Shown here: positions 6,467-31,461 of the stretch, piece after piece
How the letters are laid out: every line of letters begins with the position of its first letter
Numbering within the stretch: the first letter of the stretch is position 1
Source of the DNA: Desulfatiglandales bacterium
Lineage (GTDB): Bacteria; Desulfobacterota; DSM-4660; Desulfatiglandales; Desulfatiglandaceae
Reading direction: 5' to 3'
NCBI GenBank assembly: GCA_963662465.1
Contig: OY759599.1
Location: forward strand, 7,008,001 to 7,072,000
DNA: 64,000 bases
Notes under the pieces: model-generated
What the model was told of the DNA's origin: nothing
What the model saw: only the letters and a program-made list of their open reading frames with translations
Databases searched by the model: none
Program-made: the position numbers and the translations under genes

Positions 6467-6492
6467 ATACGCCCATACGGAGGTTTTCACGC

Positions 6493-7234: not shown

Positions 7235-7262
7235 TGGAATAGTGGCAACGTCCCCCATTACT

Positions 7263-9008: not shown

Positions 9009-9214
9009 GCAAAAAACCTCTGTGGCCTCAGCGCTCTTGGGGCTCACAAAATGTCTCATGTCAAGGGCTGACCCCGTTCCTAGGTGGTCTTGGTAGAATG
9101 TCCTCGTGTGTCGGCTTGGTGACAATGATTATACGACCATCGTTTGTGGTGCATGGCAGGCGGGTGTTCGATGTTCATCCCTATAGTTGCGTCCCCTAAA
9201 CACATAACCGAGAA

Positions 9215-9370
9215 TTGGAACTTTTTGAGAACTTCAAACCCTGCGATGGGGAACGCCATCGCCCCTACCTCATCGCCGAGGCCGGGGTCAATCATGAAGG
9301 GAGCATGGACATAGCCAGGCGCCTGATCGAGGAGGCCAAGGAAGGCGGGGCCGATGCCATCAAGTTTCAG
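9215..9370 (+). pseudogene. NeuB/SpsE N-acetylneuraminate synthase N-terminal fragment
   Basis: PYLIAEAGVNHEG...GADAIKFQ, cut just before GGTCTGACCCC (9381). Confidence 0.85.
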
Positions 9371-9619
9371 ATAAATCCTTGGTCTGACCCCAAAACCCTT
9401 TGAACATCGCTTGTTGTGATAATTAAGAGCTCAATCAATAATTCAGGCGCCCGTCTTCATTATCTGTCAAATGCATCGTTGGGGTTACCAGCAATCATCA
9501 AAAGCCTGCTCCTGATATTGCCGCATATATGCTTTCACGATATTTACGTCCCCCATTACAATATTTAGTTACAAAGTGCCAACGTTACCCCTTACACTTA
9601 ACATTACGTGAGGTATCCA

Positions 9620-9847
9620 ATGGAACCGAACAAAATCGCATCTGAAATAATGAAATTAAGTGTTCCTCAAAAGCTGATTCTGGCTCAGGACATCTGGGAT
9701 TCAATTGCCCTTGAAGGAGGTAATTTGCCTTTGCCGCAGTGGCAGAAACGCGAGCTTGAATGGAGATATGCCCAGTATAATCAAGGTGAAATGGGACTTC
9801 ATGACTGGCGTGAAGTGCATGAGGAACTTCGAAAAACAGATCTATGA
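9620..9847 (+). CDS. Addiction-module antitoxin
   Basis: LSVPQKLILAQDIWDSI...WQKREL pattern. Confidence 0.8.
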   Translation: MEPNKIASEIMKLSVPQKLILAQDIWDSIALEGGNLPLPQWQKRELEWRYAQYNQGEMGLHDWREVHEELRKTDL

Positions 9848-10125
9848 GACTCAGGTATTCTGATAGGGCCAAGGATGACTTGCGGATTGCCTTCAATTGG
9901 TACGAAGCCCAACGGCGCGGATTAGGACTTGACTTTTTGGACTGCGTTGAAGCGGCAATTGAGACAATCCAAGAGACGCCGAGGCTGTATGCGGAACACC
10001 ATCTTAACTTCAGGCGCGCGTTAGTGCGACGATTTCCTTTTTCGATTTTTTACACGATCGAAGAAACGGAGATAGTTTTACATGCTGTTTTTGACAATAG
10101 ACAAGATCCAGCTCGTTTGCCATAA
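9844..10125 (+). CDS. RelE/ParE toxin
   Basis: WYEAQRRGLGLDF...RRFPFSIFY...AVFDNRQDP. Confidence 0.85.
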   Translation: MRLRYSDRAKDDLRIAFNWYEAQRRGLGLDFLDCVEAAIETIQETPRLYAEHHLNFRRALVRRFPFSIFYTIEETEIVLHAVFDNRQDPARLP

Positions 10126-10214
10126 AGATAGCATTCCCAAAGAAACGCATAAGGGCATAGACGTTCCCATCATTCCACTATGTAACTGACGTTCCTCTTT
10201 ACACGTTGTTCTTG

Positions 10215-10976
10215 ATGCCCCGCGCCAACCGACATTTTATCCCCGGCTATATTTGGCATATCACCCATCGATGCCATAAGAAAGAGTTTCTTCTAAAATT
10301 TGACAAGGACAAAAGTCGCTGGTTATGGTGGCTATTTGAGGCGAAGAAGCGCTATGGAACGTGTATCTTGGATTACATGGTTACATCGAATCACATCCAT
10401 CTCTTGCTGTACGATATAGCTGATAGGGAATGCATTCCGAGAACAATTCAGCTGATTGCGGGCAGAACAGGGCAGGAATTCAACCAAAGAAAACGCCGTA
10501 AGGGCGCCTTTTGGGAAGACCGTTACCATGCGACTGCAGTTGAATCCCGTGAGCATTTAACCCAATGCATTTTATACATCGATCTCAATATGGTCCGAGC
10601 TGGAGTGGTGAGCCACCCATTGGAGTGGGGGCGTTTTAGCGGTTACAACGAAATTCAGAACCCTAAAGAGAGATACTCGCTCATTGATCACGCACAATTG
10701 GTGACTCTTCTCGGCAAGGAGGGCATAGATGAACTCATTGATTCGCACGCCACTTGGGTGGATGAAGCCGTGAATCAGGGAAACAAGCCACGTGAGGTCA
10801 AGTGGATGGAAAGCATCGCGGTTGGAAGCAAAGAGTTCGTGGAAAAGATCAAAGAAAAGCTGGGGGCCTTATTTCTGAGTCGTAAGGTGGAAGGGGAAGA
10901 AGGCCGGTATGAACTCCACGATCCACAACGCCCCTACAGGCTTACAGAGAATTCCTTTCCATGGCGGGATCTTTAG
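10215..10976 (+). CDS. REP-associated tyrosine (Y1/HUH) transposase, RAYT-B
   Basis: MPRANR, WHITHRC, TSNHIHLL (HUH), GAFWEDRY, YIDLNMVRA. Confidence 0.9.
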   Translation: MPRANRHFIPGYIWHITHRCHKKEFLLKFDKDKSRWLWWLFEAKKRYGTCILDYMVTSNHIHLLLYDIADRECIPRTIQLIAGRTGQEFNQRKRRKGAFWEDRYHATAVESREHLTQCILYIDLNMVRAGVVSHPLEWGRFSGYNEIQNPKERYSLIDHAQLVTLLGKEGIDELIDSHATWVDEAVNQGNKPREVKWMESIAVGSKEFVEKIKEKLGALFLSRKVEGEEGRYELHDPQRPYRLTENSFPWRDL

Positions 10977-11004
10977 CGAAAACTTTCAGCAGCTCTTTCT
11001 TAAA

Positions 11005-11104
11005 ACCCGCTTTTTAGGGGCAAAAAGGGGGTTTTAAGGCTCTAAAACAAGCTTCTTTTTGTGGTTATCGTAGTTATTACAAGTTGTTGCTGAGGTCCGA
11101 CCCC
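11005..11104 (+). repeat. RAYT-B 3' end module ending in motif B (GGTCCGACCCC)
   Basis: Related ~100-bp modules end at 3079, 12301, 12576, 21489, 23409; bare motif at 3376, 9065, 9381, 20568. Confidence 0.8.
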
Positions 11105-11361
11105 AAGAAAAATTTGCAAACCCCAAGAAAACAATAAAATTGAAATTCTCATCCGTCCCCCATTGCGCCAAAATTATTACAGAAAACATCCTAACCCCTG
11201 CGGCTTTCCGCTTCGGGTGCCTTTGTAATCCGGCTTGTCGAAGATGCCGAAATGCGGTGTCCCGTGAAATTGACGAAGTCAAGAGCGGAGCTCATTAGGA
11301 TAGCTTGCCCGATCCCAGCCCCCCAATGGATGCCCCCCTTATGATGTGTAAGCCCTAATGC

Positions 11362-11400
11362 TTGACAGCTTCCAAAACGATGTGTATACATGATGCATAT
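11362..11400 (+). promoter_or_regulatory. vapBC promoter/operator
   Basis: TTGACA-17 nt-TATACA with extended TG; overlapping palindromic TGTATACA and ATGCAT. Confidence 0.6.
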
Positions 11401-11422
11401 CCATTGCGCTGCAGGAGGTGCT

Positions 11423-11653
11423 ATGAATACAGCCAAAATCTTTAGGAGCGGAAATTCTCAGGCAGTACGCTTGCCAAAAGATTTCCAGTTTAATGTATCT
11501 GAAGTCGAGATTTATCGCAGGGGGGATGAGGTGGTCCTGCGAAAGAAGCTTCAGAATCTATCCAGGGTTTTTGACCTGCTAACCGACATGTCCGATGATT
11601 TCATGGAAGACGGTCGTAATCAGCCTCCCATGCAGGAGAGAGAACCGTTTTGA
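11423..11653 (+). CDS. vapB: VapB (AbrB/MazE-type) antitoxin
   Basis: AKIFRSGNSQAVRLPK. Confidence 0.9.
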   Translation: MNTAKIFRSGNSQAVRLPKDFQFNVSEVEIYRRGDEVVLRKKLQNLSRVFDLLTDMSDDFMEDGRNQPPMQEREPF

Positions 11654-12054
11654 TATATATGTTGGACACGGACATTTGCATTTACACGATCAAACGCAAA
11701 CCAAGCAGTGTTGTGAATCGACTTGAACAGCTTAAGCCTGGCGAACTTGCAATGTCTGCCATCACTTTTGCGGAGTTGGTGAATGGGGCAAAGAAAAGCA
11801 AGTATGTTGAAGCAAATATGGAGCGGCTCAATGCCTTGGGTGAATTGATCGACGTCCGACCGTTTGATAAACAGGCTGCCCTTTTTTACGGAAGTGTTCG
11901 CTCCAGCCTTGAGAAGAGAGGAGAAGTGATCGGCGGAAACGATCTCTTGATAGCGGCTCATGCACTAAGTCTCAACTGGACCCTGGTTACGAATAACGAA
12001 AAGGAATTCAGACGGGTTGAAGGATTGAGAGTTGAAAATTGGGTCGATGCATAA
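11650..12054 (+). CDS. vapC: VapC toxin
   Basis: YMLDTDICIY...DLLIAAHA...VTNNEKEF. Confidence 0.9.
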   Translation: MIYMLDTDICIYTIKRKPSSVVNRLEQLKPGELAMSAITFAELVNGAKKSKYVEANMERLNALGELIDVRPFDKQAALFYGSVRSSLEKRGEVIGGNDLLIAAHALSLNWTLVTNNEKEFRRVEGLRVENWVDA

Positions 12055-12576
12055 TCGTGTTGATTTACAAAAGAAAATCCAGTGAGTTAAGTCCAGAATC
12101 GTCTCTTGCTCCTTCGGTTTTGTGCGGTTTCTGTCATCTGTCAGCTGAACGCTGCGATCTGTTTTTCCGGCCCTTCGACCTCTGACTTCTGGTTCTTAAA
12201 GGCCTCTTTTTGACCCCCAAAAGGGGTGTTTAAGGTCCAGAAACCCCCTGTATTGTGGGGTAACATGCCGATATTAAGGGATTCAGCTTGGTCCGATCCC
12301 CAATCCAACCCCTGCCTTCCCCGTGAAACCTCTTTTGTATTTGTTTCACCGGAGCTTCATCGGGCTGCTAAAAAAGAGCAGTGGAATAGTAGCAGCGTTC
12401 CCCACGTCCCCCGTTGAACTAAATACCTGCCTATGGGAGGCAAACGCTCCGGATTCCTTTTCTCCGTTTTCTTAAAGGCGCCTTTTTGGGGTCAAAAAGC
12501 GTGTTTTAAGGTTGATTTTTGGGTTTTTTTTAGGCTTAACCTATTGAATAAATGGGAATGTTCCTGGTCCGACCCC

Positions 12577-12783
12577 GACCCTGCATCAGAGATTGCAAAA
12601 GCTCTTAAAAAGGCAGGCTTTCGGCTTGAGCGACAAAAGGGAAGCCACGCAAGATTTGAACATGAAGACGGACGAACAACAACTGTACCTATTCACGCGG
12701 GCCAAGATATCGGCAGAGGCCTTTTTAGAAAAATTCTTCGCGATATTGAAATGAGCTTCGACGAGTTTAGAGAATTTCTATAA
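12577..12783 (+). pseudogene. HicA toxin, 5'-truncated at motif B
   Basis: RQKGSH...TTVPIH...LFRKILRD begins right after GGTCCGACCCC. Confidence 0.8.
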
Positions 12784-13256
12784 TATCCAAGTGTCTATGG
12801 GAACATCGGAATTGGAAGAGTATGTTCACAACGTTCTCCATTGGCTATCCCCTCCGAAGGACTGTGTGCAGTAAAAATTCAGTTGCCTGAATTCTTACTG
12901 CGACAACAAGAAAAAAACAGTGGAATCCGTGTCATCCGCCGTGCCCCGTTGAACCAGGTCCCCTTTCAGGGTGTTCAACTGGGGTGCCAAAAAAAGACTA
13001 ACGACCTCCCTTATTAAGAGTCAAGCAAAGACTTGACCCTTATGTTGCGTGCCAAAATCTTGAGTTACTGAATTACAAATGGACGTCCCCCAGATTCCCT
13101 CAAGTTCAAGTATGATGAGTGCTTGGAAAAACGATGATATCACGGCAGAGGAGATTTTTGATGCCTGATATCGGCGCCCTTGCTTTGGTGAAACATGAAT
13201 ACAGCGATAAAATAGTGGAATAGTGGCAACGTCCCCCATTACACGGATGAACTGAT

Positions 13257-13805
13257 ATGAGCGAAATGGTAAAATTTGAAGAACTGCAAAACCTTATCAT
13301 CGAAATCAGGGAACAAAAGGTTTTGCTCGACGCTGATGTTGCTCAAATTTACGGTGTAGAAACAAGAGACATTAATAAAGCGGTTGCCAACAACCCTGAA
13401 AAATTTCCATCGGGTTATGTTTTTGAAGTCTCTAAAGAGGAAAAAGATGAACTGGTGGAAAATTTCCACCGGTTCAACCGACTGAAGCATTCCACCGTGA
13501 AACCGAAAGCCTTCCCGGAAAAAGGTTTGTACATGCTCGCAACGATCCTCAAGAGTCCGCAAGCGGTACGGGCGACGCTGGCAATTATTGAAACTTTTTC
13601 GAAGATGAGAAAGCTGTCAAGTAATATCAAAGCGCTTTCAAAAATCAGTGAAAAGGATGAGCAGCAGAGCCTTATGAAAAAGAGTGGTGAAATTATCGCT
13701 GAGCTCCTGGACGAAGATCTTGAAACATCGGAAACGGAAACATCCATAGAATTGAATTTTGCAGTCTTGAAGTTCAAGCACCTGGTGAAAAAGAAGAACA
13801 AATGA
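13257..13805 (+). CDS. ORF6N-domain protein
   Basis: VLLDADVAQIYGVET...N.EKFP...PKAF.EKGLYMLATILKS. Confidence 0.85.
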   Translation: MSEMVKFEELQNLIIEIREQKVLLDADVAQIYGVETRDINKAVANNPEKFPSGYVFEVSKEEKDELVENFHRFNRLKHSTVKPKAFPEKGLYMLATILKSPQAVRATLAIIETFSKMRKLSSNIKALSKISEKDEQQSLMKKSGEIIAELLDEDLETSETETSIELNFAVLKFKHLVKKKNK

Positions 13806-13918
13806 CAAAGGTCTGCCTAGATTCAATAGCCCTTTGTTTCGAAAATTTTGTCATTATGCTTTTGTAAAAAGCCCTTAAAAAAAATCCTGTAAAATCCTGT
13901 AAATCCTGTCTAAAAAAA

Positions 13919-14326
13919 ATGGAACAAGAAGACCTGACCCACAAAATTATCGGCTGTGCCTACAAAGTATACAACAGACTGGGCTTCGGCTTCCTGGAAA
14001 GCATCTACCACAAAGCCATGCTGATCGAACTCGCAAGGGCCGGACTAAAAGCAGAATCTGAAAAAGGCTTAACCGTTCATTATGATGAGATGGTTATTGG
14101 AGAGTTCTCAGCCGACATATTTGTGGAAAATGAAATCATCGTAGAACTCAAAGCGGTTGAGCGGCTGATGAAAGTGCATGAAGTGCAAGTGGTGAACTAC
14201 CTAACAGCATCGAAAAATGAAATTGGCCTCCTAATAAACTTCGGCCCAACAGGCGTCAAAGTCACCCGCAAATACCGAAAATCCCTCAAACAGGCACAAA
14301 GAATCAACCCAAAAAAAATCCTGTAA
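13919..14326 (+). CDS. GxxExxY protein
   Basis: GFGFLESIY, ADI.VE..IIVELK, Q..NYL, GLLINFG. Confidence 0.9.
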   Translation: MEQEDLTHKIIGCAYKVYNRLGFGFLESIYHKAMLIELARAGLKAESEKGLTVHYDEMVIGEFSADIFVENEIIVELKAVERLMKVHEVQVVNYLTASKNEIGLLINFGPTGVKVTRKYRKSLKQAQRINPKKIL

Positions 14327-14565
14327 AATCCTGTAAATCCTGTCTAAAAAAAAAGCCCAAAAGCAACCCGCAAATACCCAAAAAACCCTCAGACAGGATC
14401 AAAGAATCAACCAGAAAAAGAAACCCAAAAAAAATCCTGTAAAATCCTGTAAATCCTGTCTAAAAAAAATACAAAAAATTGTATCCAGTCAGAAACTGGG
14501 CACCTAAATTCTCACTGCAAAAAAAACCGTTGACATCTTCCCCGTCTTCGCCTAGTGTTCGCCCC

Positions 14566-14951
14566 ATGAACCATCTTTACGAACAAGAAATACGCTACAA
14601 AGTCCTGAAACTCCTGGCATCCAAGGCCAATCTCTCCCAGCGGGAAATGGCCAAACGAATGGGTATCAGCCTGGGGAAAACCAACTATGTCCTCACGGAA
14701 CTGGCCAACAAAGGCATCATCAAAATAAAACGTTTCAAAAGCGCCCCCAGCAAAATCCTTACACCTACACGCTGACGCCCCAAGGCCTTGAAGAGAAGGC
14801 CAAAATAACCCTAAAATTCCTGAAACGGAAACTCTCTGAATACGAAGAGATCAAGCGACAGATAAAAGAGATTGCAAAAGAAGCCGAAAAAGACAAAGTT
14901 CTCGATTACACAGGCGCCGACACAAACGAAGTATTGGTTCAAATCATTTAA
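14566..14951 (+). pseudogene. EPS-associated MarR regulator, frameshifted near 14755
   Basis: 1-nt loss relative to the copies at 28704 and 57052. Confidence 0.85.
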
Positions 14952-14966
14952 CGAAAGAAAACACTT

Positions 14967-15038
14967 ATTCCAACCATATAAATGATTTTCCGTTATGGAA
15001 ATCAAGGAGCGGAGCCGTCTCCGAAGGCTGAGTCCCCC
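14967..15038 (+). repeat. Junction module C (TCCAGTCATATAAATGATTTTCC...GCGGAGCCGTCTCCGAAGGCTGAG)
   Basis: Also at about 23433-23487, 29109-29176, 57457-57528; short form GGCGGAGCTGTATC at about 3316 and 4500. Confidence 0.75.
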
Positions 15039-15168
15039 GAGAATTCGGGTGCCTGAATTTTAATGCAACACCCCTTTGCTCCAACAATCATCAATAGTCA
15101 ATATTCAATCTCAATGGGTGCCCCATTGCGCAACATTATTGCCACGACCCTAAGAGAGGAGGTTTAAA

Positions 15169-15411
15169 ATGTTAACGATAAATGGAGTATATGACAAGGG
15201 GAAGATTGAGTTGTTAAAGGGAGTTCCGATTAAAGGAAAAAGAAGCGTGATTGTCGTTTTCCTTGATGAACCTGTTCCGGACACTTATCGTGGATTGGAG
15301 ATAGACCCAATCAGAGCTTTAAGAGGTTGTGCAAAAGGTATAAACTTGACCCAGAAATTGTTGGAATCCCGGAGAGAGGATTTAAACCTTGAAGAATCAA
15401 AATGGGGATGA
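15169..15411 (+). CDS. Putative antitoxin (AF2212-like N-terminus)
   Basis: TINGVYDKGKIEL; upstream of a PIN gene. Confidence 0.65.
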   Translation: MLTINGVYDKGKIELLKGVPIKGKRSVIVVFLDEPVPDTYRGLEIDPIRALRGCAKGINLTQKLLESRREDLNLEESKWG

Positions 15412-15817
15412 TAAGGGTTACGTTCTTGACAGTTCCGCCTTCTTAACCTTTTTTGAAGATGAAAAAGGAGCAGATACTGTCCAAGAACTACTTGAAATGG
15501 CAAAGAAAGATGAGCTTGTTATTTTTGTCTGTTTTGCCACTTTTACTGAAGTTTTCTATATCACATTTCGAGAGCAGGGACGAGAAGAAGCTCAGAAGCG
15601 AGTTGAATTGATGGCCAAACTTGCGATAACAAGAATTGAATCTTCAGAAGAGATTGGCTTAATAGCCGGAAGATTAAAGGCGACCCATAAACTCTCCTTT
15701 GCCGACGCATGGATAGCAGCAACAGCAATTTTGTATGCTTCAACCCTCGTGCATAAAGACCCTGAATTCGAGCAGTTGGAAGATGAGATAGAAATCTTAA
15801 AGTTGCCTTATAAATGA
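15389..15817 (+). CDS. PIN-domain VapC toxin
   Basis: YVLDSSA...LSFADAWIAATA...HKDPEF. Confidence 0.85.
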   Translation: MKNQNGDDKGYVLDSSAFLTFFEDEKGADTVQELLEMAKKDELVIFVCFATFTEVFYITFREQGREEAQKRVELMAKLAITRIESSEEIGLIAGRLKATHKLSFADAWIAATAILYASTLVHKDPEFEQLEDEIEILKLPYK

Positions 15818-16322
15818 ATAAAGCAGCAAAAGCACCAACGTCCCCCATTACATTACATAATCTGTATGCTTTTCTGTGAACTTCGTGCCTTTGTGGTTTG
15901 TTTTCAGTGGTAACGCAGTTAAGTAGCAACGTCCTTCATTCCCGACCTACGTTTTTTCTACATAGACTTTTTTCTTGACAGGGGTATTATAGGATCTTAT
16001 CGTTCGCGTTTTAAAAATAAGTTCTGCAAATTTTGCCGAGGAGGCAGGCAGCACTTACTTGGCGGAACAACATCTCCACGATAAAATACGATATCAGAGG
16101 CATTGGTAGTACATCCCCGGTAAGGATACAGGCCCATAAGGGGAACAGGAACGAGCGCCTTGATAGATTGATTCGAAATTGTCGTAATTCATAGCTATTA
16201 TTATTTTTTAATGGATTCAAAAACAATACGATAACATGCTGGAATAACGATGGACATTCACAGCTGTTTGTATTATGTTAGTTTCCCAACATTACAACCA
16301 CTTGAAATAACAGGGGAACTAT

Positions 16323-19300
16323 ATGAACCGACATGTGACGCATGTGTTCATTTTCGCATCAGTGTGTTTTTTGGTTTGGTTTTGCAGTTTTTCAAAGGTG
16401 CAGGCATCACCTGTTTCAGCAGGTACTGGAAATAATATAAATGCCAGCAATTCCCGCTTAGATTCTAAAGGCGCTAGGACAGTACCTTTTGGCATTTCCT
16501 TTTCGTAAAGCTTTACGTTGAATGAATAGCCTGAAAAGGCTTTTTTCTCCAATTTTTAAAATAAAACAGGAATTTTTTTGGCAATTCTCAGAAAAAGCTG
16601 GACTTTCAGATCAACTTGGCCGATGATTACTGCCTATGGGAATCAGAAGCCAAAAAGGAAGAAAAGAGAGAGGCAAGATTGGAGTTCGCAAGCATCTTAA
16701 TGCAGATGCAATTTTCAAGCGTCTGCATAAAGATTTTTCTGAAGTCTCTGACTGCCGTGAGGATCCCGATATTACTATTGCGGATGCCTTGATGTCCGGG
16801 TTTGCAATGTTTTCGCTCAAGGAGCCATCGTTGCTTGCCTTTGATGAAAGAAGAAAAACCGATAGTAATCTTGGGAACATATACCATATTGGAAAGATCC
16901 CATGTGACAGTACGATGCGCACCATTCTTGATGAAGTGCTCGCAGAAGAACTTCGGAAACCGTATAGGAATATCTTCTGGGAACTGCAAAGGGGAAAGGT
17001 GCTTGAACGTATGGTATTTTTCGAAGGTTGTTATCTTCTATCTTTGGATGGAACGGGTTTCTTCTCATCGAAGAAACTTTCCTCTGATAGTTGTTTGGTA
17101 AAAGTATCGAAAAAAACCGGCGAAAAAACCTATTATCAGCAGATGTTGGGGGCAGCAATTGTCCATCCGGATTTCAAAGAGGTCATTCCGCTTGCTCCGG
17201 AATTCATAGTCAAGCAGGATGGCCAAAGCAAGAACGACTGTGAGCGTAATGCCGCGAAACGTTTCTTGCAAAAGCTAAAAGAGGAGCATCCCCATCTGCC
17301 TATCATTATAACAGAGGACGCGTTAAGTTCGAATGCACCCCACATTGAAGAAATACAAAAGCAAAATTTTCATTATATTCTGGGAGTTAAAAAAGGAGAT
17401 CACCATTTCTTGTTTAATCACGTCGAACAAGCGCGGATAAATGGTGACGTCACTGAATTCGAATTGGTCGATAAAGAGGATCCGGAAAAAATACATCGTT
17501 TCCGATTTATTAACCAGGTACCTCTCAATGCCTCTAACAAGAATATGCTGGTTAACTTTCTGGAATATTGGGAAATTACACCGAAAAAAACAAAACATTT
17601 TAGTTGGGTGACAGATTTTTTAATAGGAAAGGACAATGCATACCAGCTAATGCGAGGCGGCCGTGCGAGATGGAAGATCGAAAATGAAACCTTCAATACT
17701 CTTAAGAACCAAGGATATCATTTTGAACACAACTACGGGCTCGGCAAGAAGAATCTGAGTGTTGTTTTTGCGATGCTCATGATGCTGGCATTCTTGGTGG
17801 ATCAAACTCAACAGCTTTGTTGCCCTCTATTTATAGCCGCATGGCATAAACTCGGCTCAAAAAGGGAATTGTGGGAACGGATGAGAGCTTTGTTTAGAGA
17901 TTTTGAATTCAAATCGATGAGGATGCTCTATGAAGCCCTCTATTATGGCGTAAAGTTTCAAGCGCCAGTTATTCTATATAACAGTGGTTAAATTTGTCAT
18001 GCCCAAGTTCGCATACAAAAATGCTCTCATTAATAAAAAACTGGAGATTCCGGAAATGGATATCTCTGCCCTAACTCGTGCTTTTATGCTCTTACTCTTG
18101 TCAAAGAAGCTCAACCTGCAAGAAATCGAGGGAGGTAATAGTGGATTTAATACAATTTTTCTGAAAAGGATCTGATCTCAGGGTTTGTTTTTGAAATATG
18201 TTTTTCAAACTCTGTGAGTAAATTCTTGACCGGGAATTGCTGTATAAATGCCGGTGCATCATCAAATCAACAAACTGGTCAATCTGAAAATCAACCCAGA
18301 CCTTTCGGTCAGAAGAATGATCGGCAGAAAATCCCAAAGCTTGAACGAAACAGGCTGGAAGAAGGTAAAAAATCAGCACCTGTAAGGAAACGAAAAAAAA
18401 AGAAAAAATCAAATAAAACGAAAACTGCCAAGAAAAAGCGTGAGGGAACTCTATCATCGGATGATGATGCCTCTCACATTGCAAACAAAAGGAAAAAGGT
18501 CAAAAAGATTAACGTTACAGCAGAAAGAGTTGACGATATACCCCTATTGATAAAGGCCATGGTGAAAATGGGTATACAAGAAGCTATAGACCAACACATC
18601 CCAGTTCAAAAGAACCAAAGAGATTTGAGCTGGGGATGGACGGCTGTTATATGGTTGGCATATATGTTATCGGAGGGAGACCATCGCAAAGTAGTCGTCC
18701 GGGAATATGTATCTGGAATGCGGCATACCTTAATCGAATTAACAGGATTGATAATCTCCGAAAATGATTTCACAGACGATCGTTTAGCGAATCTTGCCAG
18801 GTATTTAAGCGATAACGATATTTGGAGCAAAGTTGAAGAGAGAATAAGTGGCAATACGATTGAAGCATATGAGTTGCCGGAAGAAACTGTCAGGGTTGAT
18901 GCTACGACTGTATCCGGCTACCACAAAACAGTTGAAGGTGGGATATTCCAATTTGGTGTTAGTAAAGACGACCCCAATAGACCGCAAATAAAAATCATGA
19001 CGGGTTCGCTGGATCCTCTTGGGATGCCGTTAGCCACGGATGTTGTTCCAGGGCAAATGGCCGATGACAAATTGTATGCACCTATCATAAGTCGCATTCA
19101 CTCTATGCTCCAGAAACAAGGTGTCCTTTATGTGGGCGATTGCAAACTGAGTTCTCTTGAAAATCGTTTACACATTAAGGAAAAAGCGGAAGGACATTAC
19201 TTATGTCCATTGCCTAATACTGGGAAAACCCCAGAATATATGGAGAAATGGATAGATGAAGGAAATTTGAAAGACAAAAAGAACGAGTTGATAAAGTACA

Positions 19301-20229
19301 TCGTCCAAGACGATAAAGGTCAAGAGGAACTGAAAGCAAAAGGGTATGAGATAGAGCGTAACCAATCTGGTGAAATAAATGGAAAAGTGCTGAAATGGAA
19401 GGAACGCGTATTGATTGTAAAATCACCAGCGTATGAAAAGCAAAAAGAACTGGGATTGGAACGACGGCTTAAAAGCGCCGAGGAAAAATTATATGCTCTG
19501 ACACCACCAAGAGGCCCGGGGAAAAGGCAGATCAAAGAAAGAGAAAAATTAATAGAATCAGCAAAATCGATTTTGAAAAAACATAGGGTGAAAGATTTCC
19601 TTAAATATGAATATGTGCGGGAAGTAGAAAGTAAAACGAAATATATTGGTAAAGGTAGAGGGAGTGTCAAAAGAGAGAAAAAGGTTGAAGAAAGAATACG
19701 TTATCAAATAACAAAAGTGACACGGATTAAGGAAGCAATAGATGCGGAGAAGAAGAAGTATGGGTGGAAGGCCTATGTTACAGATGTATCAAAGGAGCGA
19801 CTTGATTTTATTGATGTAGTTAGGTCTTATCGAAAACAATACCGGGTTGAACGAATATTTAACCGACTGAAAAGTAGGCTAAACATCGCTCCATTTTACG
19901 TAAAAAGGGAAGATCAAGTTAAAGGAATAACGCATCTTCTGATGATAGGAGTCAGGGTAATTACTCTGGTTGAATTTGTTGTTCGCCGCTCATTAGCAAG
20001 AAGCGACGAAAAGCTTGTTGGATTGCACCTGGGAAATCCCAAGAAAGCTACGAACAATCCAACGTGTGAGAAGCTATTAAATGCTTTCAGCAAAATTACA
20101 TTAACGATAATTGAAACAGGAGATAGTGTGATAAGACATCTAACCCCACTTTCTCAATTGCAACGTGAAATTCTAAAACACTTTGGACTTAGCACTTCTA
20201 TATACGATAATTTAGAAGTTATGCAATAG
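16323..20229 (+). pseudogene. IS1634-family transposase interrupted at 16444/18252
   Basis: ERVDDIPLL, VRVDATT, YVGDCKL, VERIFNRLK; removing the nested IS and one TSD restores a 699-aa frame. Confidence 0.85.
16445..18242 (+). mobile_element. 1798-bp DDE IS, copy 1 (transposase 16636-17991)
   Basis: TIR CAGCAATTCCCG; 9-bp TSD TATAAATGC; LSLDGTG, TEDAL, RWKIENETFN. Confidence 0.92.
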
Positions 20230-20613
20230 TAAAATATTATCGTCATAGTCCTTACAGGTTGTCACAATTGAAATACAGATTTTACGACAATTTATATGAT
20301 TGTTGGAGATATGGAACGATGGTGTTTTACGCACGATCCATTCCATTTTCTGCCCTATTGTGTTGTTCCAATATTCGACGTGTGTTGTTTTTCAGGCTTT
20401 ACTAACCCATGGATGCATGTTGCTCAAAAAGACTCCTGGTAGGCTTTCCGGAAATAACTTTTCCCCCTGCCAAGAGAGGTACCCTCTACCAGATTTCGAA
20501 ATTAATCGAAGTGCAAATTTAAAACGCGAACGATAAGTAGGATGTCCCCTATTACGGGGTTTTCCATGGTCCGACCCCAATCCACCATTGTCTGAACCGG
20601 CAAGGAGTTTGAA

Positions 20614-20880
20614 ATGCAAACCATTACATATGATAAAGCGTCGCAAAATTTGAAGAGCGTTATCCTTAGAGCCGTGAGGGATAAAGAGGAAACGGTTATT
20701 GCAAGTGATGAAGGGTCCGTTATTATCTTAGACGAAATTGAATGGTCACATATCAAGGAAACGCTTCGTCTTTTAGGCGACAAAAAATCATTGGCCGCTT
20801 TGGTAGAGTCTCATGCCATTCGTGACAGAGGTGGAAGACCTGAAGGGGTCGACCCGGAAGACGCCTTCAAAGATGTATAA
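20614..20880 (+). CDS. Phd/YefM antitoxin
   Basis: ASQNLKSVI...EWSHIKETL; overlaps YoeB. Confidence 0.85.
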   Translation: MQTITYDKASQNLKSVILRAVRDKEETVIASDEGSVIILDEIEWSHIKETLRLLGDKKSLAALVESHAIRDRGGRPEGVDPEDAFKDV

Positions 20881-21139
20881 GATAATCATTTCCAAAAATG
20901 CTCAGAAAGATTTATCCTGGTTTAGAAAGAACGATAGAAGCAGTTATATAAAATGCTTCGATTTGGTGAGAGAGGTCATGCAAAATCCAAGGGGTGGCAC
21001 AGGAAAACCTGAACGTCTGAAGTACTTCGAAAAAGAAGTCTATAGTCGCCGTATCAATCATAAAGACCGTATGATTTATACCATTTATGAAGGTTTAAAT
21101 GAAATAGACATCACTTCTTTCCGCGGTCATTATGAATAG
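20873..21139 (+). CDS. Txe/YoeB toxin
   Basis: GTGKPERLK...YSRRINHKDRMIY...GHY. Confidence 0.9.
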   Translation: MYKIIISKNAQKDLSWFRKNDRSSYIKCFDLVREVMQNPRGGTGKPERLKYFEKEVYSRRINHKDRMIYTIYEGLNEIDITSFRGHYE

Positions 21140-21572
21140 CCCCAGCGCAACTCTGCTTTTTTGTGAACTTCGTGCCTTTGTGGTTTGTTTTCAGCGGTAA
21201 CGCAGTTAAGTAGCAACGTCCCCCATTTCTCTATCTTATTTATCACTCAATAACATCATTTTCAATCAATTTTGCAAGCCTCATGTGTTATATACATAAC
21301 ACATGAATTTGACCTTGTCCGGGACAATCTTTTCCTCCTATTATTTGTGAAGTTGCCCCTCTGGCCGCTTCACACATTAAACCCTGAAAACTTGGTTTTT
21401 TAGTGCGAAATGTAAGGTTTAAGGGCAAAAATGAGGCTTCTTTTGGGAAGTTCAGTAAGTAATTCGACGAGTTGCTGAGGTTCGACCCCAATACCTTCCA
21501 AAAGTCCCCCATAACATTGTCCCTTTACAATTAAATTACCTCAGTATTCACATTAAAAGCGGGGTACGCGAA

Positions 21573-21806
21573 ATGATGAGAGCGAATTTTACAATAAGGC
21601 TGAACGAACTTGACGCTGACCTCATTAAGAAGCTTAAGGGCTTTTTTCGGGATGATAATATCGTTGAGATTAATGTCTTCGATGAAGTGGATGAAACTCA
21701 GTATCTGTTTTCTACAGCGGCTAACCGGGAGTCATTGTACCGGTCCCTTGAGGAATTCAAGAAGGGGGAGTTTGTCCATAAGCAACCCCACGAGCTTTCG
21801 GCGTGA
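21573..21806 (+). CDS. YefM-like antitoxin
   Basis: DETQYLFSTAANRESL motif; upstream of a YoeB fragment. Confidence 0.7.
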   Translation: MMRANFTIRLNELDADLIKKLKGFFRDDNIVEINVFDEVDETQYLFSTAANRESLYRSLEEFKKGEFVHKQPHELSA

Positions 21807-21970
21807 TTCACTTCACCAAAGAGGCATGGGAACATTACCTGTATTGGCAGGCGACTGATAAATCCACCCTTAAAAAGATCAATATTCTGATCCGCGACAC
21901 AGTCAGGAGTCCCTTCAGGGGGCTGGGCAAACCTGAACCTTTGAAGCGAAATCTGGCCGCGGTTCAATAA
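21803..21970 (+). pseudogene. Txe/YoeB toxin, 3'-truncated
   Basis: Hand translation: FTKEAWEHYLYWQ...GLGKPEPLK, then a stop before a motif A module. Confidence 0.8.
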
Positions 21971-22139
21971 AAAAAACTAACAAAACTACCAACATCCCCC
22001 ATTAACTCACAAAAAAACACGACCTGTTCTGAGTCCTTAATCTTTTAACCTAATCCGTGAAAATCCGTGTAAATCCGTGGCAAAAAACACAAATAAACCA
22101 GTGCAATAACGCAGTTAGATAGCAACGTCCCTCATTATG

Positions 22140-22250
22140 CATGCCTGAACCTCCGGGAGAGATAAGGCTGGTGCATGGGGAAGATCGTGCCCGGCATGCC
22201 CTTTCGGAAGCGCTCTATCCCCTAAAAACAACAATAAACCAACCATGACC
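22140..22250 (+). pseudogene. 3' fragment of the MBL-fold hydrolase gene
   Basis: Near-identical to 35963-36073; follows motif A at 22123. Confidence 0.85.
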
Positions 22251-22387
22251 CCTATGAAAAAAATCCTAAAAATCCTGTCTAAAAATAAAGCAACAAAAGT
22301 GCCAACGTCCCCCATTACCCTCAATTGAGGAGATATGTGGGAGATATCGAGAATAGTGGAATAGTGGCAACGTCCCCCATTACACAG

Positions 22388-22526
22388 GTTTAAGGTGTAA
22401 GGTGTAAGGTGTAAGGTGTAGGGTGTAGAGGGGGTAGGAAAAAAGGTATAAGGCATAGGGTTTAAGGTATAAGGTATAAGGCGAACCCCGCACCTTGTTC
22501 CCTACACCTTAAACCTTAAACCTTAA
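22388..22526. repeat. 7-mer tandem repeats (AAGGTGT/AAGGTAT) with inverted partner (ACCTTAA)
   Basis: Read directly. Confidence 0.85.
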
Positions 22527-22527
22527 G

Positions 22528-22692
22528 CTTACAGGCTATTCAGCCCATGCAGATCAAAGCATGCTGGTCAATTGGGTAAAAGCCATGCCTGAACCTCCGG
22601 GTGAAATCCGGCTTGTGCATGGGGAGAGCAGCGCCCGCCATGCCCTTGCCCGGGCATTGGGACTGTAACCCTGCCACCAGACAACGACAATA
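22528..22692 (+). pseudogene. 3' fragment of a paralogous MBL-fold hydrolase
   Basis: LTGYSAHADQSMLVNWVKAMPEPPGEIRLVHGE. Confidence 0.8.
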
Positions 22693-22708
22693 AGCGAAGC
22701 CCCGTGCC

Positions 22709-23242
22709 TTGTTAATTGAGAATTTAAAGGACATGCTCGTTGAGCTGCGTGGCCAAAGTGTTTTGCTCGATAGCGATGTTGCCGAAATATACGGTATTGA
22801 GACAAAACGAGTCAATGAGGCAGCAAAAAATAATCCTGATAAATTTCCGCGTGATTACATGTTTGAGGTCAGCGAAGGGGAGTTTTCGGATTTGCGGTCG
22901 AAATTTTCGACCACAAAATTTGCAAAGACAAGAGCCTTACCGAAAGCCTTCACTGAAAAAGGTTTGTACATGATTGCTACGATATTGAAAAGTAAACAGG
23001 CTACAGAAGCGACGTTTGCAATCATTGAAACTTTTTCAAAAATCAGACAGCTATCAAGAAACATTCAGGAGCTATCGATTGTTCAAGATAAAGCGGATCA
23101 GAAAGCACTCATGCAGAAAAGTGGCGAGATTATCACTGAACTCCTGGATGACGACCTGCAAACAACCGACACAGAAACATCGATAGAACTGAACTTCGCC
23201 GTTTTGAAGTTCAAGCACGCGATAAAGAAGAAGAAAAAATGA
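22709..23242 (+). CDS. ORF6N-domain protein (paralog of 13257; start uncertain)
   Basis: VLLDSDVAEIYG...PKAFTEKGLYM; shared C-terminal SIELNFAVLKFKH. Confidence 0.8.
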   Translation: MLIENLKDMLVELRGQSVLLDSDVAEIYGIETKRVNEAAKNNPDKFPRDYMFEVSEGEFSDLRSKFSTTKFAKTRALPKAFTEKGLYMIATILKSKQATEATFAIIETFSKIRQLSRNIQELSIVQDKADQKALMQKSGEIITELLDDDLQTTDTETSIELNFAVLKFKHAIKKKKK

Positions 23243-23551
23243 GAAATATCGAATATGGGATTGCCTGTGCACGCTCTGCACGAACATCCCCAAGTCTATA
23301 TTTTCTTAAAAGCCCCTTTTTGCCCCAAAAAGGGAGTTTTAAGGCCTAAAATGGGGCCTTTTTTTCCATCTATTGTAGTTATTACAATGGGTTGCTGAGG
23401 TCCGACCCCAAGAGCTAGCGAAAAAAGTAATTAATCCAGTCATATAAATGATTTTCCTTTATGGAAGTCAAGGGGCTGAGCTGTATCAGCGCATCGGTAT
23501 TTTCAAAGGAAGAAGGGGAGTTAGGGGAATAACCTTACAAACCTTCCAACG

Positions 23552-23700
23552 TTAAGTATTTATGGGATATTGGACGATCGGGCCGTCCAGCACTACTTTG
23601 AACTGGGCTGTGAGGTCGAAGGCCTGGGCCGCGGGCATGTTAAGCGAATCAAGGATCAGGTGCGAAACGCTTCTCAAAACCGGCAAGAAGAAACGGGGGT
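23552..23700 (+). pseudogene. C-terminal fragment of a nucleotide-sugar dehydrogenase (also about 53570-53716)
   Basis: YFELGCEVEGLGRGHVKRIKD is homologous to 61890-61986. Confidence 0.75.
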
Positions 23701-23708
23701 AAGTCAAA

Positions 23709-23945
23709 ATGGAAACCATAATTGAGCTAAATGACAAAAAGATGCAGTTGAAGGAGTGTATTGCCCAAATAGAGAAAACGGGCAAAACTCTAATTATTTC
23801 CCGCGGCAAAAAGCCGGTGGCCAAGTTGATACCACACAAAAGCAAGGACCCGCTCAGTATGGACCCGACGTTGAGGGGTGCTTTTTTTGTCGATGACCCG
23901 ATGGCTCCCCTGTCGGAAGCTGATTGGCCCGAGGCGCTTCGATGA
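23709..23945 (+). CDS. Phd-like antitoxin
   Basis: IISRGKKPVAKLIP. Confidence 0.8.
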   Translation: METIIELNDKKMQLKECIAQIEKTGKTLIISRGKKPVAKLIPHKSKDPLSMDPTLRGAFFVDDPMAPLSEADWPEALR

Positions 23946-24327
23946 TTCTACTCGATACGCACGCCATTGTTTGGCTTGCTTCAGACAGGATCGGTTTACG
24001 GAGAAGGGGCGAGCATTGATCAGGGATAATGCGGGCCAGTTGTATGTCTCTGTTGTGTCTGCGTGGGAGATATCCATGTTGCACAAACGAAATCGCCTGC
24101 AACTGCCCATGGAGCCGGAACAGTATGTTGATCGCCTCATCAAACAGCATGATTTGAACGAAGTGCCTTTGGAGCGAAAAGTTGTTCAGCTTTCTGTTCG
24201 TTTGCCTGATATCCACAATGATCCCTTCGATCGGGTGCTCATTGCTCTGTGCCGGGAAGAGGGATGGCTTCTTCTGTCAAAGGACAAAATTATTCGGAAG
24301 TACCCGAGCGTACAGATTGCATGGTGA
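23942..24327 (+). pseudogene. VapC PIN toxin, frameshifted (intact copy at 53958)
   Basis: TCAGACAGG versus TCAGACCAGG; LLDTHA, HNDPFDR. Confidence 0.85.
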
Positions 24328-24630
24328 ACAATTAATCCCGAGGTAACAAATCTTGAACAAGGACCGGATAAACGGACACCTTCACCTTTAAGCTTTTATA
24401 AAAACAGCGTAATCTGTGAAATCCGCCTGCCCCGTTCAATTTTTACCCCGTTAAACCTTCTTTTTCCTTTGTTTAACTGGGGCACGCCAGTGACGAGTGG
24501 AACGTATTTAACCGGGGTGCCAAAAAAACTAAAGGTTCACCAGTAAAGTAACAAAAGCACCAACGTTATATAATAAAAAAACCAACAGGTTACACTCCCC
24601 ATTACACATCTGTGTCCTATTTTAAAAAAA

Positions 24631-29944: not shown

Positions 29945-30219
29945 AAATGGTTATGAAGGTTACCAGGCCGAGAATATCTTCTTTATTGAAACAAAGTCAC
30001 AGGGCACCAACGTTCTGTTATCCCCTATCGTACCTTATTATAAAAGGGAAAGTGATGACATGTGAATGGAAACCTGGCAACTTAGCTGTTTCCCGAGCCT
30101 AAGCGGATACAGTGTTTATTCCGGATTCCGGCCGGGACAAACAATCCTTAAAATCCTGTGAATCCTGCCTGCCCCGTGAAACCCGTTTTGTTGTTTCACT
30201 GGGGTCTAAGAAAAACAAG

Positions 30220-31461
30220 ATGCCCCGCCAACCAAGACTTGACGCTCCAGGCCTCCTCCAACACGTCATGCCGGCTCCGTTCAATTCCGCAGGACAGCGT
30301 AGCGTATTTAACGGGGGCCCGGGGAATAGAACGACGAAAGATCTTCCTCGATGACAAGGATCGCGAGTCTTTCCTGGAAAGGTTCGCCAATATCCTTGAA
30401 GAAACCCAAACGCAATGCTACGCTTGGGCCTTGATTCCAAATCACTTCCATCTTCTTTTACGAACAGGCCCTACCCCACTCAGCAAGGTCATGCGCCGCT
30501 TAATGACCGGATACGCCGTGACCTTCAACAAAAGACATAAACGTTCCGGCCATCTCTTCCAAAACCGACCTGCCCGACATCGGCTTCGCCTTCAGGCGAG
30601 GCGGGCGGGTACAAATCCGTTGTGTGCGAGGAAGACACCTATCTCCTGGAACTGGTCCGCTACATTCACTTGAATCCGCTACGGGCGAGCCTGGTTCAGA
30701 ATCTCCAAGAGCTCGACAAATACCCCTGGACCGGCCACAGCGCCATCATAGGCCGACGAAAAAACCCCCTAATACCAGAGGTCAGCGATCAGAAGTCGGA
30801 AGTCAGCAGCCAAAAAACACCCAGAGCCCCCTCCGTCGCAGACGGATTGCCTTTTTCCCTTTCGTCCGGAAAGGGAAAAAAACAACAAAATAATCCTGAT
30901 AATCCTGTAAATCCTGTCAAAGAAAAAAAGCTGTTAGCCGAAAAGACCATCGAAGATACCCTCCTCCATTTCGCCGAAACCAAAAGAGCCGCTATAAAAA
31001 AGTATCGAGAATTCGTGGAAAAAGGGATCAAACAGGGTACCCGCGAAGATCTTCAAGGAGGCGGCCTTGTCAGGAGCGCCGGTGGAGATGCGGCAGGCCT
31101 TCTCGGGCGTAAAGCAGAAGAACGGGAGAAGGGAGACGCGAGGATTTTGGGGAGTGGTGATTTTGTTGAGACAACCCTTCACCAGTCTGAAAAATTGCTT
31201 GAAAGGAAATATGGACCCAAGAAAGCGATTGAAGATTTGATAAAGGATGTTTCAGAGGTTTTCGGAGTATCTCCTGAGCTGATTTGTTCAGGGAGCAGAA
31301 AGCCTAAAATCTCTGATGCCCGAGCTATTGTAGCACATATGGCGGTTGAGGAAACGGACCACAAGGCAACGGATGTAGCGAAACATCTTGGAATTAAGCA
31401 AACAAGCGTTCTACAATCGGTGAAGAAGGGGAAGGTTCTGTGTAATAGAGTAGGGCTATAA
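30220..31461 (+). pseudogene. RAYT-A paralog disrupted by two mini-insertions (30271-30316, 30569-30609)
   Basis: Homologous to 5342-6424; motif A follows at 31482. Confidence 0.9.

Follow-up and report, generated by a model that had tools for sequence, protein, structure and literature searches.

A duplicated toxin–antitoxin unit bounded by a short bipartite site in a one-directional cassette array of a Desulfatiglandales bacterium

A unit of about 1 kb encoding a toxin–antitoxin (TA) pair, a Phd/YefM-like antitoxin followed by a VapC-type PIN-domain toxin, occurs twice, 30 kb apart, in a 64,000-nucleotide stretch of a Desulfatiglandales bacterium genome (contig OY759599.1, assembly GCA_963662465.1). 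This stretch, the window, comprises positions 7,008,001–7,072,000 of the single 8.16-Mb contig of the source genome (G000). Coordinates follow the numbering of the window, and values above 64,000 or below zero lie outside it. The first copy closes a long series of small modules separated by a short repeated site, and three genes of this region encode a Y1 (HUH) transposase domain, in two of them joined to a DnaA-type helix-turn-helix (HTH) domain (Table 1).

The unit opens with a truncated dehydrogenase gene. As a preliminary description of this DNA had recognised, its left end is the tail of a nucleotide-sugar dehydrogenase gene: about 170 nt are 82–85% identical to the 3' ends of the intact UDP-sugar dehydrogenase gene at 76036–77724 and of other tails. 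The 51-aa piece encoded here has no Pfam match of its own, and an equivalent tail open reading frame (ORF) at 61648–61986 scores 28.1 bits with UDPG_MGDP_dh_C, under the 30-bit cut-off. Such 3' tails, here of roughly 300 nt and 84–95% identical, recur downstream of the intact gene in at least five more copies (61592–61958, 73932, 77429, 79108 and 81176), each between copies of a repeat, R, that also flanks the second TA copy. In their arrangement these serial tails resemble displaced gene ends such as serial integrations might leave.

The antitoxin gene lies directly upstream of the toxin gene and overlaps it by the 4 nt ATGA (53961/53958 in copy 2). The antitoxin matches PF02604 (Phd/YefM) with 20.3 bits, below the 29.8 cut-off, and its best match in the Protein Data Bank (PDB) is RelB (E = 0.65). 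The copy 2 toxin is a PIN domain (PF01850, 52.4 bits against a cut-off of 23.6), with acidic residues at the usual positions by inspection (D5, E43, D97, D115). PDB sequence searches gave no useful solved homologue of either protein. Non-coding DNA of about 240 nt forms the 3' end of the unit; it contains a hairpin and closes with TAA-AGTAACAAAAGCAC-CAACGT. The hairpin belongs to a family with eight plausible members among nine pattern matches in the genome, including those at 12943, 24429, 30171 and 61630, and at 73970 and 75982 beyond the window. The stems of this family vary yet keep their pairing (GTGAAAC/GTTTCAC, GTTGAAC/GTTCAAC, GTTAAAC/GTTTAAC), and similar hairpins accompany the site in other genera.

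Alignment of 23520–24573 with 53527–54590 (MAFFT, BLAST) gave 98.3% identity over 1064 columns, and these are the only two full-length copies among 13 BLAST hits to the unit and its flanks genome-wide. The duplication of 23552–24569 at 53568–54586, as first reported, is thereby confirmed. Within the unit the copies differ by six substitutions; copy 1 also lacks 1 nt, and the left junction has an indel of 6 nt, in agreement with the VapC frameshift and few substitutions already noted. The junction strings given in the preliminary description are likewise correct: the left junction reads ..CCAACGT|TAAGTATT in copy 1 and ..CCAACGTCCCCAT|TAAGTATT in copy 2, and both right ends read ..AAAGCACCAACGTTAT, with divergence beyond. 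Its statement that the unit has neither terminal inverted repeats nor a target-site duplication also held, since among the 8 and 7 inverted pairs found in copies 1 and 2 none has arms at both termini, and the junction sequences show no duplication at the unit ends apart from the repeated site itself.

Public read-derived contigs from two runs of one sample (X15 and X16) bear on whether the duplication is real. In both, the unit forms its own node in the assembly graph, extending exactly over 23552–24569, with a depth of 106 and 70 against 54–63 and 39–53 for the flanks, an approximately twofold excess. The X16 node carries the copy 1 alleles, including the 1-nt deletion, and the X15 node those of copy 2; both right exits are present in each run (depth 57/42 for the copy 1 flank and 65/35 for that of copy 2). 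The two allele sets, the two right exits and the doubled depth together establish that the duplication and the frameshift are real, and the assembly artefact that the preliminary description had allowed for is excluded. These runs may be the assembly's own source data; they exclude a mis-join or consensus error and do not amount to an independent isolate. An alternative junction suggested by a loose end in the read contigs (..GGAATAGTGA + CAACGTTATATAAT..) was not found in G000.

The preliminary description placed both ends of the unit on the motif CAACGT. Both ends do lie at the same short site, of which CAACGT is only the 5' half. The motif belongs to a 16-mer, CAACGTCCCCCATTAC, upstream of which stand a stop codon and two tandem 8–9-mers; these 8–9-mers fall into a handful of classes. 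The whole forms a bipartite site of about 35 nt: two tandem 8–9-mers + CAACGT | CCCCCATTAC. Homology between the copies also reaches some 22–27 nt upstream of the start first proposed (AACCTTACAAACCT[T/G]CCAACG), because the upstream neighbours of both copies end in the same class of site. CCAACGT is over-represented in the window, with 14 occurrences, 11 of them on the + strand; the expectation is 5.5 +/- 2.6, and no shuffle out of 100 gave as many as 14.

The 16-mer is concentrated in two parts of the genome. At two or fewer substitutions G000 holds 39 copies, 18 of them in the 7.0–7.1 Mb bin and 13 at 8.0–8.16 and 0–0.1 Mb, flanking the contig ends. At up to four mismatches the window contains 29 sites on the + strand and 3 on the − strand; outside the islands the genome has 517 and 500 hits, a background of about 4 on each strand for every 64 kb. 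The sites are not palindromic. Their strand is the lagging-strand template at 7.0 Mb, the origin lying at about 5.5 Mb and the terminus at about 1.75 Mb. Between successive sites the array carries HTH_24, Y1-DnaA-C, AAA ATPase, ParE, MazE-PIN and HicA genes, then ORF6N/PDDEXK_3/HTH_24 genes, two Phd-YoeB pairs and finally the Phd-VapC unit. It is broken by insertion sequence (IS) elements at about 16.4–20.5 kb. One of these, a composite IS at 15995–20536, splits a site (..TATAGGAT|IS|TAGGATGTCCCCTATTAC) and is accompanied by an apparent duplication of 6 bp, TAGGAT; the same site is uninterrupted in G010, a genome of the same genus.

The 29 kb between the TA copies hold only two weak sites, together with IS elements, tyrosine recombinases and a third Y1 gene. 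The tyrosine-recombinase ORFs form a cluster of six or seven at 36335–45384, some adjacent and co-oriented, broken by IS insertions; three-gene sets of this kind recur at at least five other genome positions, and the cluster looks like 'recombinase in trio' elements. Triplets of a 9-mer, AATCCTGTA, followed by an A-run, immediately precede Y1 genes and the ribosome-binding sites of polysaccharide genes that run in the same direction. There are 16–20 copies in 3973–62101, and genome-wide 49 on the + strand and 22 on the − strand; 25 of the 49 fall in 7.0–7.1 Mb and 14 in 8.1–8.16 Mb. Among 41 genomes the exact pattern is nearly confined to G000 and G010, others having analogous triplets of different 9-mers. 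A mosaic of about 70–80 kb, with blocks 94.5–99.99% identical, repeats 29146–101959 of the contig at 8082092–8161625, and the contig's final base aligns to position 101,959. The second motif island may thus have undergone a genuine, large segmental duplication, or else the assembly did not resolve the closure of the circle. Many sites lie at contig ends in metagenome-assembled genomes, and arrays break assemblies.

Other modules behave like the TA unit at their edges. Four further duplicated modules break at or next to ..CGTCCCC.. (4571/27775, right; 28339, left; 11179/79682, left; −4840/7079, right), and junctions of the form CAACGT|TA(T/A) recur at 24561, 54578 and 32629, with CAACAT|TAT at 2372. 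The left-hand site module of the TA unit is common to five junctions, each followed by different DNA. The decamer after ..ACGT differs in 10 of 18 pairs of sites that share the upstream 45 nt and have different downstream DNA, and is identical or 1 nt off in 5 of 5 pairs with the same downstream and different upstream DNA; the pairs are not independent of each other. Its variation tends to follow the downstream cassette, which appears to favour a join at CAACGT|CCCCC over one after ..CATTAC. To that extent the boundary first proposed, at CAACGT, is upheld. A MazE-PIN TA cassette at 11179–12582 is duplicated 68 kb away at 79682–81085 with 99.8% identity, and one of its copies is preceded by the same 45-nt module as stands before Phd-VapC copy 2.

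The class of half-site before TA copy 1 also ends a DnaA-C-domain ORF in locus L052, a Y1-DnaA-C-type gene cut by the locus edge, and occurs in a genome of another genus (G041). The 58-nt mini-cassette before copy 2 is also present at 7577–7634. To the right of CAACGTTAT the flanks of the two copies have no homology. An end sequence, GTTGCTGAGG(T/A)CCGACCCCAAGAG, is repeated at several module junctions (23380–23412, 11080–11108 and −4870..−4846); homology of the copy 1 upstream flank to G010 stops at 23420/23421, beside one of these copies.

Table 1. Features of the duplicated unit, its flanks and the surrounding array
Feature	Position	Strand	Remarks
Unidirectional cassette array	1475..24605	+	25 + strand sites at up to 4 mismatches
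Island-type Y1 (HUH) transposase + DnaA-C HTH gene	5342..6424	+	PF01797 + PF08299
Second Y1-transposase gene, Y1 domain only	10206..10976	+	in array
5' half-site before copy 1	23528..23552	+	AATAACCTTACAAACCTTCC + AACGT; ends truncated HTH_24 cassette
TA cassette copy 1	23553..24566	+	boundaries under a CAACGT| model
Truncated UDP-sugar dehydrogenase 3' tail	23553..23725	+	about the last 55 codons; ends inside antitoxin start region
Antitoxin, Phd/YefM-like, 78 aa	23709..23945	+	intact in both copies, one L/F difference
PIN/VapC toxin, copy 1	23942..24327	+	inactivated: 1-nt deletion after 23985, frameshift near codon 15
Hairpin CCCCGTTAAAC..GTTTAACTGGG	24446..24481	+	GCCCCGT..ACTGGGG family; two substitutions weaken that of copy 2
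Unit's own 3' half-site, TAA + AGTAACAAAAGCAC + CAACGT	24544..24566	+	family D19
Mini-module, 39 nt, ends ..CTCCCCATTAC	24567..24605	+	recurs at genome 5,362,811 in another context
Third Y1-DnaA-C gene, split into two ORFs	30158..31461	+	between TA copies; preceded by 9-mers and hairpin
Repeat R, left copy, about 100 nt, intergenic	53345..53446	+	R85 + ATCCTGT 9-mers
Full 16-mer site + 58-nt mini-cassette	53499..53562	+	end of mini-cassette is the half-site before copy 2
TA cassette copy 2	53563..54583	+	antitoxin 53725–53961 intact; PIN/VapC 53958–54344 intact, 128 aa
Repeat R, right copy	54617..54709	+	98% identical to left copy

Comparison with related genomes indicates how the arrangement may have arisen. 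G010 holds a single TA copy, 99% identical, with the left flank of copy 1 (into the HTH_24 gene) and the right flank of copy 2, and two further runs (X17 and X18) show the same single-copy arrangement at flank depth. The order is thus A-TA-B in G010 and A-TA1-[29 kb]-TA2-B in G000. The left junction in G010 is the full motif ..CCAACGTCCCCCATTAAGTA.., and therefore the CAACGT|TAAG of copy 1 reflects a later loss of 7 nt. At the majority of variable positions G010, and a further genome (G005) where alignable, match one of the G000 copies, the other having a private change. The block 26476–29157, which lies between the TA copies in G000, stands upstream of the single TA in G010. Derivation of the G010 arrangement by simple deletion or recombination of copies 1 and 2 was considered and rejected; its alleles are not left-copy-1/right-copy-2, and it keeps this block. 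G010 also joins the window up to 3300 straight to 15852, where G000 has an extra 12.5 kb made up of about 12 cassettes; this block begins immediately after one site, another site forms its end, and its breakpoints share only the 12 nt GTCCCCCATTAC. In G005 only the TA core is found (97% identity), between direct repeats of an analogous, different site composed of three 9-mers and then ..CCTGACCCCCCATTTCAC. The donor locus postulated in the preliminary description, with a full dehydrogenase gene upstream of the TA pair, did not come to light in 41 genomes, and G010 has the same truncated tail. G010 further carries an insertion of about 130 nt (L022 11694–11824, at 26779), with copies of 94–97% identity at G000 positions 415947, 1699401 and 3462654; this is a separate element resembling a miniature inverted-repeat transposable element (MITE).

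The Y1-DnaA-C genes are physically linked to the site. The gene at 5342–6424 has ATCCTGT 9-mers upstream, and two tandem copies of the site start at its stop codon. ORFs that end 0–14 nt before a site module encode Y1_Tnp and/or Bac_DnaA_C domains at four loci, both PF01797 and PF08299 at L047 and one of the two at each of L052, L076 and L080. Island-type genes end 17–80 nt before a same-strand site in G007, G024, G045, G050, G077, G083 and G092, and the adjacency extends to at least eight genomes. Island-type genes have sites in direct orientation only and no terminal inverted repeats. By contrast, G000 also encodes 337-aa IS-type paralogues whose inverted termini, GGGGACGTTCGTCAG / CTGACGAACGTCCCC, have the core of the site in common with it and partially match the published GGGGWSAS consensus. 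The link to the site is limited to the island-type genes and the termini of these paralogues; the notion that all Y1 paralogues track the motif was dropped, some 20 diverged loci being scattered over the genome. Three or more sites are found in 9 of 14 genomes with an island-type gene and in 7 of 109 without one, a threshold picked post hoc among related genomes, so that p-values overstate the co-occurrence. The Y1 domain comes nearest to the NCBIfam RAYT model NF047646 (60–72 bits, below the cut-off of 80), scoring 19.8 bits with the IS200-type model NF033573, below 55.

Proteins with a Y1 domain and a C-terminal HTH/Bac_DnaA_C domain are placed in subclass 2.1.2 of TnpA-Y1 in the relevant part of PMC6006769, which also records that the DnaA-type domain of DnaA itself binds 9-mers. 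In the same account (Quentin et al. 2018, PMC6006769), the section concerned with subclass 2.1 states that no REP-like repeats (repetitive extragenic palindromic sequences) were found near its genes. The subclass is related to the TIRYT proteins and TIRtrons, so far as the description in Di Nocera et al. 2013 (PMC3733652) extends.

Beyond these genomes the site is widespread in the class. At one mismatch or fewer the 16-mer is present in 38 of 123 genomes at least 90% complete, representing 28 of 69 genera, while reversed-pattern controls mostly gave 0–1 (outliers 7 in G007 and 5 in G107). In a collection of species genomes totalling 596 Gb the exact 16-mer matched more than 129 stretches, against about 280 expected by chance. 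Among 80 loci listed, 38 are labelled Deltaproteobacteria/Desulfobacter*/Thermodesulfobacteriota and 7 NC10; several contigs carry 2–4 same-strand 16-mers spaced 0.9–1.4 kb apart, and some matches from Proteobacteria look like chance hits inside one conserved coding sequence.

One-strand clusters of the site occur in G072 and in G083/G041, the latter two designating the same genome, from the family of G000 and a different genus. At up to two mismatches G041 has 120 + 35 sites against 6 + 1 in the control, the reverse-strand sites listed running from 1,277,800 to 1,364,130. Its cassettes encode DUF3368, PemK, HicB, RelB-PIN, HNH and HTH_24 proteins and NeuB/PglD fragments, and it uses the site classes of G000, including that before TA copy 1. 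Of 75 Y1 protein hits in this genome, 36 lie in the array region (1.28–1.40 Mb), on the strand of the array; no integron integrase was found there (best score 84 bits against a cut-off of 265). Segments shared by G041 and G000 are only 72–90% identical, and whole cassettes give no sign of having passed recently between the two genomes. In G021, of another genus, TA modules, the site, a truncated tail and a hairpin occur together inside a polysaccharide cluster, the tail appearing sugar-nucleotide dehydratase-like when its translation is judged by eye.

The reading put forward here is that the TA unit is one cassette of a one-directional array and that recombination takes place at the sites, probably through a Y1 enzyme; a probability of roughly 0.5 seems appropriate. 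It goes beyond the duplication, the site, the arrays and the linkage of the site to Y1-DnaA-C genes, all of which are observed directly, in supposing that a Y1 enzyme cuts at the site, that cassettes move as units and that the DnaA-type domain binds the 9-mers. The site would be the terminal sequence of Y1 (HUH) transposase genes with a DnaA-type HTH domain (TnpA-Y1 subclass 2.1, TIRYT-like). The enzyme would recognise the tandem 8–9-mers, possibly via the DnaA-type domain, and would nick and rejoin single-stranded DNA at about CAACGT|CCCCC on the lagging-strand template, the orientation in which HUH/Y1 transposases such as that of IS608 are reported to act. Any segment flanked by two sites could then be cut out, copied or inserted. 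Had a site landed within a gene, excision from there to the following site would yield a cassette that opens with a gene tail; the TA cassette may in this way have kept a remnant of the sugar-nucleotide dehydrogenase gene it once followed. Recombination at sites would have given the second TA copy, converting A-TA-B to A-TA1-[29 kb]-TA2-B, and the copy 1 toxin would have been lost afterwards by frameshift.

Several observations weigh against this reading. IS200/IS605 and REP systems use hairpin ends, and the sites here show no single-strand fold (z-scores −1.6 to +1.2 for 10 segments against shuffles). The strand bias relative to replication is confounded with gene orientation. Because of the position of the block 26476–29157, more than one event is needed to account for the difference between G000 and G010. 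The unit's own 3' site has no CCCCCAT part in copy 1, copy 2 or G010, and cleavage after ..CATTAC would render it defective. Three of the 14 genomes with an island-type gene have no site at one mismatch or fewer, while 27 of the 109 without the gene do have one. The Y1-DnaA-C genes could, moreover, be frequent array cargo and not the engine, the similarity between the site and the terminal repeats of the 337-aa paralogues being the sole independent argument to the contrary. The interpretation in the preliminary description, which named no enzyme, holds in outline: its 'mobile cassette' stands as a discrete unit, found in different neighbourhoods (twice in G000, once in G010, and as a core in G005), and that it moves is suggested by these genome comparisons.

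The main rival, which is somewhat unlikely and yet the most serious, is that short-homology or homologous recombination between dispersed repeats shaped the region, with the TA unit as a passive passenger. The sites and R repeats would be MITE-like debris or solo ends once spread by Y1 elements, between copies of which RecA or replication slippage duplicates, deletes and reshuffles the intervening DNA. REP-mediated duplications of this sort are known in enterobacteria, and the outcome is formally the same as that of site-specific exchange. Two features of the locus count for this explanation and against Y1 action at once: copy 2 lies between direct repeats of about 100 nt, 98% identical and long enough for RecA-type recombination, and the left sides of the two TA copies share the 22–27 nt of the upstream site class. 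For the R repeats, copies of which also separate modules at 72–84 kb with 95–100% identity, it is indeed well supported. Several breakpoints, however, share only 12–16 nt, short for RecA-dependent exchange over 12–30 kb, and gene fragments abut the site directly. Past CAACGTTAT the right junctions of the TA unit have essentially nothing in common, so the position of that junction cannot be the work of ordinary homologous recombination in the flanks. The recurrence of the same site classes and array layout in many genera also suggests a dedicated process.

An improbable alternative is Campbell-type integration, in which a circle of about 30 kb with its own TA copy, either an excised array segment or an integrative element, recombined in one step through the 1 kb of homology, the boundaries at the sites predating the event. 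The change from A-TA-B, as in G010, to A-TA1..TA2-B is the classic signature of such an event, 1 kb at more than 98% identity is an efficient substrate, and between 36 and 53 kb the interval encodes several tyrosine recombinases and a primase-type zinc finger, alongside IS elements. From 24.6 to 33 kb, its left third, the interval is nevertheless ordinary array, and the block found upstream of the TA unit in G010 means that the interval is not a simple foreign insert. The question is also only moved back, as the incoming copy would already have had site-precise ends in a different neighbourhood.

More improbable still is that the motif is mainly an expression signal (a promoter, operator or RNA element) of small operons, found at module ends merely because these are intergenic. 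The site does often stand 20–30 nt before a ribosome-binding site and start codon, one 8–9-mer class resembles a −35 hexamer 17 nt before CATTAC, and ATCCTGT 9-mers directly precede the start codons of polysaccharide genes. A scan of 22200–24800 for promoters and terminators, however, gave nothing above shuffles and nothing at the sites: the two sigma-70 hits were both on the minus strand, against 4.0 expected, with no + strand promoter at a site. Rfam at gathering thresholds returned no match over the whole window. Furthermore, the site also precedes gene fragments without a start codon, its core is common to transposase terminal repeats, and rearrangement breakpoints fall on it. The motif may conceivably serve in both capacities.

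An integron cassette with an attC site, or an assembly artefact, can hardly be entertained: G000 does have five integron integrases above the TIGR02249 cut-off (at 3.29, 4.43, 4.98, 6.13 and 6.79 Mb), TA cassettes are typical of chromosomal integrons and the copy 1 left junction, G|TTAAGT, happens to fit GTTRRRY, but the closest IntI gene is some 215 kb from the window, the 100-kb bins that contain IntI genes are free of motif copies, the canonical site (..CGTCCCCC..) has neither R''/R' boxes nor a fold, the G041 array, the largest, with more than 100 sites, has no IntI, and the X15/X16 contigs exclude an artefact. A crude attC scan proved powerless, finding nothing even beside true IntI genes, and was not counted; self-BLAST near those genes gave too few repeats for a model. 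Partial integrase copies lie at 6.85 and 7.98 Mb.

If cassette exchange at the sites by a Y1 enzyme is the correct reading, a more tentative proposal follows, namely that these arrays represent a second gene-cassette platform, integron-like in function and run by an HUH/Y1 transposase with a DnaA-type domain. Cassettes would end in (8–9-mer)x2-CAACGT and begin with CCCCCATTAC, being cut and rejoined there on the lagging-strand template, and arrays of up to about 100 sites in the polysaccharide loci of sulfate-reducing Desulfobacterota would shuffle TA modules and pieces of sugar-nucleotide genes. To our knowledge, among bacterial systems for stockpiling and reshuffling promoter-less gene cassettes only integrons are well understood, and an HUH-site cassette array would solve the same problem in a second way. 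The TnpA-Y1 subclass 2.1 (TIRYT-type) proteins would thereby gain a function and a cognate DNA site. How TA modules and fragments of genes accumulate in surface-polysaccharide loci would be explained as well, and through such accumulation surface variation and phage defence are likely to arise. An HUH enzyme that recognises a specific sequence of about 35 nt would, in addition, be of interest for HUH tags and single-strand DNA tools. Even if plain recombination is responsible, the conserved site, its classes and its arrays are a useful annotation target. The broader feature of site and array seems undescribed as far as the literature search reaches: judged by title, none of the 12 papers listed out of 61 matches dealt with such arrays, subscription journals excluded, and a full-text search with the 12-mer GTCCCCCATTAC returned unrelated papers only, as judged by title or the start of the abstract.

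A number of parallels can be drawn with known systems. The TA pair itself resembles VapBC type II modules in having a small antitoxin gene that overlaps (ATGA) the gene of a 128-aa PIN toxin, although the antitoxin is weakly Phd/YefM-like and the copy 1 toxin is broken. HUH single-strand chemistry, the absence of inverted repeats and of a target duplication, insertion next to a short specific sequence and a preference for the lagging-strand template are shared with IS200/IS605 (IS608-type 'peel and paste') and IS91/ISCR (one-ended capture). If adjacent genes were captured through use of a different end, a cassette opening with a gene tail would be accounted for. The sites here, by contrast, lack subterminal hairpins, and the units lie head to tail and are not dispersed; among the window ORFs scanned no match to a TnpB-type or Y2 transposase was noted. 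As in REPtrons and REPINs with their RAYT proteins, a domesticated-looking Y1 gene sits beside a cognate short repeat dispersed in intergenic DNA, and the best NCBIfam match of its Y1 domain is the RAYT model. That score is, however, under the cut-off, the site is not palindromic and has no GTAG tag, and its copies gather in islands and are not scattered over the whole genome.

A Y1 HUH core with a C-terminal HTH/Bac_DnaA_C domain is also the architecture given for TIRtrons and TIRYT proteins in the pertinent sections of PMC3733652 and PMC6006769, and the 337-aa paralogues of G000 have the layout set out in that part of PMC3733652, with terminal inverted repeats starting GGGG. The island site differs in occurring only in direct orientation and in delimiting gene cassettes; the portions of the two papers that deal with these elements (PMC3733652, PMC6006769) describe no cargo or cassette arrays. 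In organisation there is a parallel with the sedentary chromosomal integrons, which likewise have one-directional arrays, here of cassettes of about 0.1–2.6 kb, with a recombination-type site near the stop codon, common TA cargo, duplicated and 'empty' mini-cassettes, and arrays of about 100 sites. The arrays described here differ from integrons in that no IntI is linked to them, the site is linear, about 35 nt long and without R''/L''/L'/R' boxes or a hairpin, and the candidate enzyme is an HUH/Y1 transposase and not a tyrosine recombinase. Furthermore, unlike those of integrons, they are embedded in polysaccharide gene clusters and carry gene fragments.

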